A stretch of 63,871 bases of DNA, counting the filler, from Reclinomonas americana ATCC 50394 (lineage: Eukaryota), in assembly GCA_048213135.1 (NCBI GenBank). It is 35 parts of 35 records of this genome, joined end to end, with 100 filler letters (N's around TTAATTAATTAA, not from the genome) between each part and the next. Parts side by side here need not be neighbours in the genome. Positions count along the whole stretch, not along the records: positions 11,695 to 13,539 come from AFZH01025162.1; 34 more parts are not named here. One strand, written 5' to 3'. Below, one piece after another: positions 11,980-13,539 of the stretch. Under the pieces are notes generated by a model. That model did not search any database. It saw only the letters and a program-made list of their open reading frames with translations, and had not been told where the DNA came from. The translations under genes and the position numbers were made by a program. How positions within the stretch are numbered: the stretch's first letter is position 1; each line of letters begins with the position of its first letter.

Positions 11980-13356
11980 GATGATCTCATTTCCACCCCC
12001 TTGTGTGATCGACTCGCCCTCTCCAATCATGGGATACACAATCGCACATTCTCTACAAGATGCACGGAAAGTGACGAATGAAGCAGCCAGATGGAACAAG
12101 AGATTCAGGAATGCACACGAGTAGGATGCGTGAGGGGTGGGAGGGAAAGAGTGAGTGAAATCGATTCCACTCCACAAATCACATTTCCCCATGAACAGAC
12201 ATCAACAGACTCTGTTCAATCACAGAATGCACACTCTCTATTAATCGAAGAGATGACTCATGCAGCTAAAAATAGCACGCACAGTCCCATCACCACGAAT
12301 CACTGCATGCACCCTCCTCCCTTGTATCACGCACACACCCCACTCCCAGTCAATCTCCTTTTCCATAATATTGACCAAGAAAGTCATGCACGCTCGAAAC
12401 AGAGAAATCGCGTAGGTGTACCTGGAAATATTATGTGTGAGACGAAAAGAAAAAGCAACGAAAGAAATGAACAACAGCGTCGAAGCGAGGGAATCGTCTG
12501 CGAGTGAGCATTCGATCGTATTCTCAAGCCGAGACGATTGGAGAGGGATGAAGGAGAGAAGGATGTTGACTGCAATCGGTGAGAGATGATTGCGATTTCT
12601 TGGCATGATTGTGATGGGAAAGCGGAGAGAATGAATGAGATCATATGAAGGAGAGAGAAAAGGGAAGAGAAGATGTGTGGAGATGTTCTATCTTCTGCAT
12701 GATGCTTTCTCTTCCTCTTCTTCTCTCTAATCAATCATCTATCTCACCACCTCTTTCTCAAACAACCATGAAAAGAAATCGACAATGGGGTGCTGCTGCT
12801 CTTCTCTTCTCATAAAGAGATGATGCATGCATGCACTCTGGAATCACATCAAATCATCTCTCTTTTCCTTGATTGGGAGAGAATGATTTGGATGAGCAAC
12901 CAAAGAGGGGAAATGTGTATGGATTTGCTTTCTGAAAGCAAGACGATGCGATTGAGAATGGAATGCTTTTTGTGAGGGGTGATTTCCTTGCGTGATCTTT
13001 TCCGAAGGGAAAGAGAGAAAGCGAGGCGATTAAATGAGAAAAACTCACTGTGAGCCTGTGTTTTGAATGGGAAGATTGCGGTGCCTTCTTTTGATGAAAG
13101 AGAAGGTTCTCTCGATTTCCCTTTCCACGGTTGAGGAATGTGATCAGGAGGGAATGGATGGAAAAGGAGGAAAGGATATTCATTTGAATTCCTTTCTTTC
13201 TTTGCAAGAAGAAAGATGTATCAATCACAATGACCATGAGGGAGAGGATGTGAGAGGAGAAGGAGGAAGAAAGAGACAAGAAGACTATTTATAGTTTCCT
13301 TGCCTAAAAAGCCTCTTCTCCCGCACCTCCTTTCCCTCTCTCAAAAGTGAGGGAGA

Positions 13357-13412
13357 AATCTGGTTGATCCTGCCAGTTGCCATATGCTTGTCTCAAGGAT
13401 TAAGCCATGCAT
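13357..13412 (+). rRNA. 18S (SSU) rRNA 5' end, truncated after ~56 nt
   Basis: AATCTGGTTGATCCTGCCAGTTGCCATATGCTTGTCTCAAGGATTAAGCCATGCAT closely matches the conserved eukaryotic 18S start (CTGGTTGATCCTGCCAGTAGTCATATGCTTGTCTCAAAGATTAAGCCATGCA). Confidence 0.95.
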
Positions 13413-13539
13413 CAAGGGTCAAGGGTCAAGGGTCAAGGGTCAAGGGTCAAGGGTCAAGGGTCAAGGGTCAAGGGTCAAGGGTCAAGGGTCAAGGTCAAGG
13501 GTCAAGGTCAAGGGTCAAGGGTCAAGGGTCAAGGGTCAA
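13412..13539 (+). repeat. (TCAAGGG)n array with TCAAGG variants, candidate telomere
   Basis: Tandem 7-mer running to the contig end, with the G-rich strand 5'->3' toward the end. Confidence 0.7.

Follow-up and report, generated by a model that had tools for sequence, protein, structure and literature searches.

A TCAAGGG array directly abutting the first 56 nt of an 18S rRNA gene: a probable telomere-capped end of an rDNA array

At Arabidopsis NORs, in microsporidia and in nucleomorphs, no other genes lie between the rRNA genes and the telomere, and the rDNA minichromosomes of ciliates carry complete rRNA genes and are associated with defined breakage signals. Adjacency of rDNA and telomere repeats has also been reported in other organisms. 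In Chlamydomonas reinhardtii, all three of the rDNA-containing (class D) subtelomeres are capped directly by telomere repeats, with one of the three contacts lying inside the 18S gene (Chaux-Jukic et al. 2021, PMC8287924). In Magnaporthe oryzae, the TEL1 rDNA telomere has its TTAGGG repeats at varied positions in the rRNA genes or in the spacer, and the authors attribute these truncations to breaks at which telomeres formed de novo (Rahnama et al., 10.1101/845669). In Giardia muris, rDNA adjoins the telomere in half of the telomere-ended contigs (PMC7641422), and in Aurantiochytrium, 18S-28S clusters are transcribed towards every telomere (10.1101/2023.06.15.545109). These descriptions follow the available text of the four reports. 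A first-pass annotation of the DNA analyzed here had referred to telomere-capped rDNA as an established structure, and the accounts of Chlamydomonas and Magnaporthe bear this out.

Here we describe a similar contact, in which an 18S gene gives way after 56 nt to an array of TCAAGGG repeats. It lies in a stretch of 63,871 bases, referred to in the following as the window, which separates at its N runs into about 35 contigs of ~1.8 kb, arranged in falling order of length from 1852 to 1800 bp, with a few shorter ones. The adjacency of neighbouring contigs in the window is biologically meaningless. The contig with the junction spans 11695-13539 (1845 bp, 44.8% GC), and the contig that lies 3' of the linker at 13540-13639 is an unrelated bacterial one of high GC content. 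The features of the junction contig and its border are the following:

11695..13356, plus strand: purine-rich non-coding spacer leading to the 18S start; putative 5' ETS, possibly part of the intergenic spacer (IGS)
13238..13339, plus strand: stable hairpin in the fold of 13225-13356, 17 nt short of the 18S start
13357..13412, plus strand: 5' end of an 18S (SSU) rRNA gene, limited to model positions 1-56 (RF01960, 43.1 bits, E 7.1e-10, marked as truncated at its 3' side)
13393..13398, plus strand: TCAAGGG-like hexamer TCAAGG, 13 nt upstream of the junction; the sole TCAAGG on this strand in 11695-13411
13412..13539, plus strand: (TCAAGGG)n array reaching the contig end, putative telomere; its G-rich strand runs 5' to 3' outward
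13540..13639, no strand: artificial linker of N44, TTAATTAATTAA and N44; non-biological and identical between all contigs of the window

The 18S sequence in this contig is a gene fragment, not a gene. In an Rfam scan limited to the contig, 13357-13412, which reads AATCTGGTTGATCCTGCCAGT...AAGCCATGCAT, aligns to positions 1-56 of the 1831 positions of the SSU_rRNA_eukarya model with near-maximal posterior, in agreement with the initial description of an 18S gene cut after about 56 nt. Its score lies below the gathering score of 50 bits because only 56 nt are present. In two Rfam scans of the whole window, the fragment does not appear among the matches; possibly, a 3'-truncated match is scored as truncated only at the end of the searched stretch, which would explain the miss. 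These scans yielded no 28S sequence, no intact rDNA and no other rRNA piece in the remaining ~62 kb of the window.

The fragment passes into the repeat without a linker, as had been claimed, and the two share a single base: T13412 closes ...GCCATGCAT as nt 56 of the 18S sequence and at the same time opens the first TCAAGGG unit. From this point, TRF reports 18.6 copies of a period of 7 nt with 96% matches, including two units that are one G short (TCAAGG at 13489-13494 and 13502-13507). The array ends at 13539 only because this is the last base of the contig. A 14-mer of two repeat units occurs 37 times in the window and not once in 100 shuffles of it, and all 37 occurrences fall within this array or within a second one at 58613-58876.

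The 1.66 kb upstream of the 18S start had been described as non-coding and spacer-like, and this description holds: none of the four stop-to-stop frames of at least 120 aa in 11695-13356 has a Pfam match. The stretch contains three direct repeats of ~70 nt at 11765-11979 as well as long hairpins, and in a principal component analysis of tetranucleotide frequencies its contig groups with those non-coding contigs of the window's main eukaryote that are rich in AG/CT. Its last part, 13225-13356, folds with -53 kcal/mol, compared with a mean of -35.4 for shuffled sequences (z -4.41, with 1 of 200 shuffles folding as well). The resulting hairpin is compatible with the structured 3' end of an ETS, without being proof of one, and it is by its position before the 18S start that we label the spacer a putative ETS. 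We also considered whether the low CpG frequency of the contig (observed/expected 0.47) might reflect methylation, but dropped this reading because other low-complexity contigs are equally depleted.

A second contig of the window, at 57088-58887 (43.2% GC), also carries the repeat at one end:

57088..58612, plus strand: unique, gene-less flank, ending in a T10 run at 58603-58612
58613..58876, plus strand: second (TCAAGGG)n array, with about 21 perfect units followed by mostly TCAAGG units, at most 11 nt from the contig end

TRF reports 40.1 copies with 98% matches for this array. The G-rich strand points outward in both arrays, for which the chance expectation is 1 in 4. Outside the arrays, 57088-58612 has no similarity to 11695-13411; the two contigs thus have only the array in common, which fits different chromosome ends better than a single duplicated satellite locus. 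At the second junction, the T10 run is followed by GG and then by TCAAGGG units, in a register unlike that of the 18S junction. A reading of the T10 run as the poly(A) tail of a retroelement was ruled out by strand logic. The TCAAGG units in the distal part of the second array look like homopolymer undercalling near read ends rather than a real zone of variant repeats.

Repeats of the telomerase type have a short unit of 5-8 nt with a cluster of G at its 3' side and form homogeneous head-to-tail arrays. TCAAGGG has this form, with a 7-nt unit of T/A followed by GGG and with 96-98% matches in two arrays, and its presence at a second, unrelated contig end supports its assignment as the probable telomere repeat of this organism, as judged from sequence. 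No rival candidate for a telomere repeat is present at the ends of the contigs in the window. The window outside the arrays contains no match to a telomerase-RNA template, defined as a CCCTTGA word of at least 10 nt, and the one 9-mer found is at chance level. TCAAGGG was not found as a telomere motif among the literature matches listed in a whole-word search with 12 of its 14 rotations and complements, with supplements and subscription journals outside the coverage. Motifs described elsewhere are TTAGGG in Acanthamoeba and Mantamonas and, in the available text of the report, TTAGG in Aurantiochytrium (10.1101/2023.06.15.545109), so that these three do not qualify as the source organism; the accessible portions of the Diplonema literature yielded no telomere motif.

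In our view, the contig probably represents a telomere-capped terminal rDNA unit that was truncated within its 18S gene and healed, although we hold this with some reservation. The contig would then be a chromosome end of a eukaryote with a GC content of ~55-60% and TCAAGGG as its telomere repeat, at which an rDNA unit transcribed towards the chromosome end broke 56 nt into the 18S gene. Telomerase would have healed this break by pairing the terminal T of ...GCCAT with its template, and would then have added CAAGGG and further units. A repeat that starts in register, with an overlap of 1 nt, is what priming of a 3' T on the telomerase template would produce.

The sequence switch, its register, the polarity of the repeat and the second contig ending in TCAAGGG are direct observations, and several findings speak for such a healed end: the rRNA gene abuts the array directly, with 18S positions 1-56 followed by 18.6 units, and the 18S start is preceded by a non-coding spacer of eukaryote-like composition with a stable hairpin. 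By this account, the spacer would be the ETS or IGS of the last unit in an rDNA array, and the repeat would be a product of telomerase. The break itself seems to have been accidental rather than programmed. Several observations weigh against a healed end. The spacer at 11695-13356 has no companion rRNA piece in the window by which a real ETS could be identified; four-unit TCAAGGG arrays are not specific to telomeres in other genomes; and the array ends at a contig break. Simple tandem repeats make up 9 of the 68 contig ends in the window, and contigs in this assembly break at repeats of any kind. End position alone is for this reason weak evidence for a telomere, and that the array is truly terminal is a conjecture. 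The initial proposal of a healed telomere at a break in the 18S gene is partly supported, namely with regard to the linker-free switch, the outward G-rich strand, the second contig and the precedents; its weak point is the coincidence of array end and contig break. A functional linear rDNA molecule, which had also been suggested, is argued against by the gene itself: no functional rDNA minichromosome could have this end, at which only 56 nt of 18S remain.

The other contigs of the window give an impression of the assembly as a whole. Most have a GC content of 52-62%, with many (GA)n or (CA)n tracts, and encode eukaryotic domains such as IPT/TIG, WD40, SAS-6_N, HECT, CEP76 and protein kinase. 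The open reading frame with the TIG domain has only a 24% match, to a Triparma protein, and leads to generic TIG clusters in the ESM Atlas. Another 6-8 or so contigs have a GC content of 64-70% and mostly bacterial-type genes:

13640-14737, 18722-19976, 22015-23851, 23952-25010, 43707-45522, 58988-60790 and 60891-62690: contigs with 64-70% GC

The genes on these contigs include MiaA/IPPT, RibD_C, acyl-CoA dehydrogenase, PP-binding, GNAT, LysE, LysR, TetR and TrmO, the last of which is 55% identical to proteobacterial or myxobacterial proteins. Two members of the set (23952-25010 and 58988-60790) have no Pfam matches and are included by their GC content alone. The high-GC contigs point to bacterial DNA mixed into a eukaryote assembly.

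Three further observations concern individual contigs. The contigs at 5853-7701 and 7802-9648 match each other at 98.0% identity along all of their 1.85 kb and contain long open reading frames without Pfam matches; the pair represents either allelic copies in a heterozygous diploid or a recent duplication. The gene for a WD40 protein at 20898-21914 on the minus strand contains a tandem repeat of 126 bp (42 aa) at 21096-21863, with ~70% matches between units, and is a repeat-expanded beta-propeller gene. Finally, a fragment of a NAK/AAK1-family kinase at 32843-33463, on the minus strand, has its best match (60%) in a metagenome protein with Pkinase, ANTH and ArfGap domains. The same architecture recurs in a protein from a Filamoeba transcriptome, which provides a weak lead to a possible amoebozoan affinity of the host.

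Among the alternatives to a healed chromosome end, a technical artefact survives best, although we regard it as unlikely. A chimeric read or clone, produced by ligation, by PCR or by template switching during whole-genome amplification, would have joined rDNA to a telomere or satellite repeat in a contig of low coverage. The assembly is of low quality because it is very fragmented, with its contigs of ~1.8 kb, and bacterially contaminated; undercalls of GGG as GG in the distal parts of both arrays suggest error-prone read ends; and chimeras of rDNA and telomere sequence should be relatively frequent because both are abundant. The structure of the junction nevertheless speaks for a genuine contact. 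The longest word that the 18S fragment and the repeat have in common is the hexamer TCAAGG, which is far too short for a graph or k-mer misjoin to be expected. The first-pass annotation had located this hexamer correctly at 13393-13398 and had raised the concern that it might have seeded such a misjoin. A misjoin of this kind would sit at 13398, and the junction lies 13 nt downstream, past the only TCAAGG in the fragment, so that the hexamer explains neither a misjoin nor the expansion of a microsatellite; a template switch or an in-situ expansion seeded there would have yielded another sequence. A random chimera would also have to account for the 1.66 kb of upstream sequence that are continuous with the junction, for a repeat that begins in register with an overlap of 1 nt and in telomere polarity, and for a resulting structure that is well precedented biologically. 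Neither metagenome contigs nor contigs of prokaryote genomes contain the precise 24-nt junction sequence, a result that carries no information should the organism be missing from these collections.

We consider it rather improbable that the contig derives from an internal locus, at which a dispersed 18S fragment, such as an orphon or a retro-copy, lies next to an interstitial TCAAGGG minisatellite or telomeric sequence and the contig happens to break within the repeat. The frequency of simple repeats at contig ends, given above, would be in line with such a break. Scattered pieces of rRNA genes are documented, for instance as ~3600 28S fragments in Diplonema papillatum (PMC10161547, in its available text). 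Furthermore, an assembler would normally break at the branch between high-copy intact rDNA and a rarer path into the telomere. The unbroken contig from the ETS through the junction into the array may therefore mean that the main rDNA array has a different spacer, as would fit an internal locus.

TCAAGGG arrays do occur internally in many genomes. Searches for (TCAAGGG)4 in public collections returned over 120 loci in metagenomes and over 105 in prokaryote genomes, of which 225 were compared with the window. Their arrays mostly lie inside bacterial DNA, much of it from cyanobacteria, or are mixed with TTTAGGG or TTAAGGG variants, and those at the ends of metagenome contigs show both polarities. 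None of the 225 loci contains the 18S 5' motif, and none resembles the contigs of the window outside the repeat; they are thus no guide to this organism and show only that the heptamer is not confined to telomeres. As an observation in its own right, short internal arrays of 4-17 units are present in many prokaryote genomes, especially in heterocystous cyanobacteria, with more than 10 loci in one strain, and the longest outside array was found in a Maribacter genome. These prokaryotic arrays constitute a family of heptanucleotide repeats that is unrelated to the array capping the 18S fragment.

Against an internal locus stands, first of all, the 18S fragment itself, which starts exactly at nt 1 of the gene, after a long non-coding spacer and a stable hairpin, and hence looks like a genuine gene start and not like a random piece. 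The absence of any other rRNA fragment from the remainder of the window likewise gives no indication of dispersed pieces. The arrays of the window, with at least 128 and at least 264 nt, are longer than those at the 225 outside loci, all of which measure 28-98 nt except for a single one of 119 nt. In addition, both arrays of the window have the polarity of telomeres, as would be expected for the healed chromosome end that we favour.

The hexamer at 13393-13398 is telomere-like and, as such, a possible candidate for a seed of telomere addition, a role that we infer from its sequence. If the addition were programmed, position 56 of the 18S gene would be a reproducible site, used for developmental fragmentation or rDNA excision and marked by the hexamer in cis. 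A random 56-mer carries a given hexamer on the respective strand in ~1.2% of cases, and hotspots of de novo telomere addition in yeast are located at telomere-like sequences, according to the accessible text of a report on them (PMC10055226). We consider a programmed site, which had been put forward as an option, highly improbable and find it unsupported, given that the junction is a single instance, with no others in the metagenome and prokaryote-genome collections, that the second contig has no seed near its junction (its nearest TCAAGG is 617 nt away), that the hexamer belongs to a universally conserved stretch of 18S and is one base off the Rfam consensus, that there is no sign of fragmentation biology in this organism, and that addition positions vary in Magnaporthe (10.1101/845669, in its available text).

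A more elaborate combination, in which TCAAGGG is a real, telomerase-made repeat, nt 56 of the 18S gene a reproducible addition site favoured by TCAAGG, and the terminal unit the source of a TERRA-like RNA from the rDNA promoter, seems to us very unlikely. If it were true, the terminal unit would retain its Pol I promoter and ETS and would transcribe ETS-18S(1-56)-(UCAAGGG)n, a telomeric transcript resembling TERRA.

A telomere on a truncated rRNA gene is a structure that is already in print, and the only new element here is TCAAGGG as a probable telomere motif. If the healed chromosome end is real, TCAAGGG, which differs from the plant-type TTTAGGG at two bases, probably forms the telomeres of this eukaryote, and one or more of its chromosomes end in an rDNA unit that breaks off within the 18S gene. 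The organism would then represent one more lineage with terminal, fragile and telomere-healed rDNA arrays, next to Chlamydomonas, Magnaporthe, Arabidopsis and Giardia. While this opens no new question, the motif can be used to screen the whole assembly for chromosome ends.

Among the known systems, the ciliate rDNA minichromosomes resemble the proposed end in that de novo telomere addition takes place beside rDNA. Their ends, however, carry a complete rRNA gene, whereas the 18S gene is cut after 56 nt here, which sets the locus apart from them. With Giardia, the Arabidopsis NORs, Aurantiochytrium, microsporidia and nucleomorphs, it would have in common that the rRNA genes are the outermost genes of the chromosome end. 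In Aurantiochytrium, rDNA is also transcribed towards the telomere, but as described in the available text, its units are intact and lie ~9.4 kb from a TTAGG telomere, with long repeats in between, in contrast to the truncated unit and the direct contact seen here.

The likeness to Chlamydomonas and Magnaporthe goes further, as far as the available text of both reports describes them. As in Chlamydomonas, the repeats sit directly on rDNA with nothing in between, and one of the Chlamydomonas junctions lies within the 18S gene as well. The Chlamydomonas repeat is of the TTTTAGGG type, and numerous Nanopore reads together with Southern blots established its junctions, whereas the present junction is known from a single short contig. 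In Magnaporthe, the repeat is TTAGGG, and multiple independent truncation points were demonstrated experimentally, compared with the one contig described here. The proposed end nonetheless has the same organization as its Magnaporthe counterpart, a terminal rDNA unit that is truncated and capped by telomere repeats, and the mechanism that we propose for its origin, a break at which a telomere then formed de novo, is the same.
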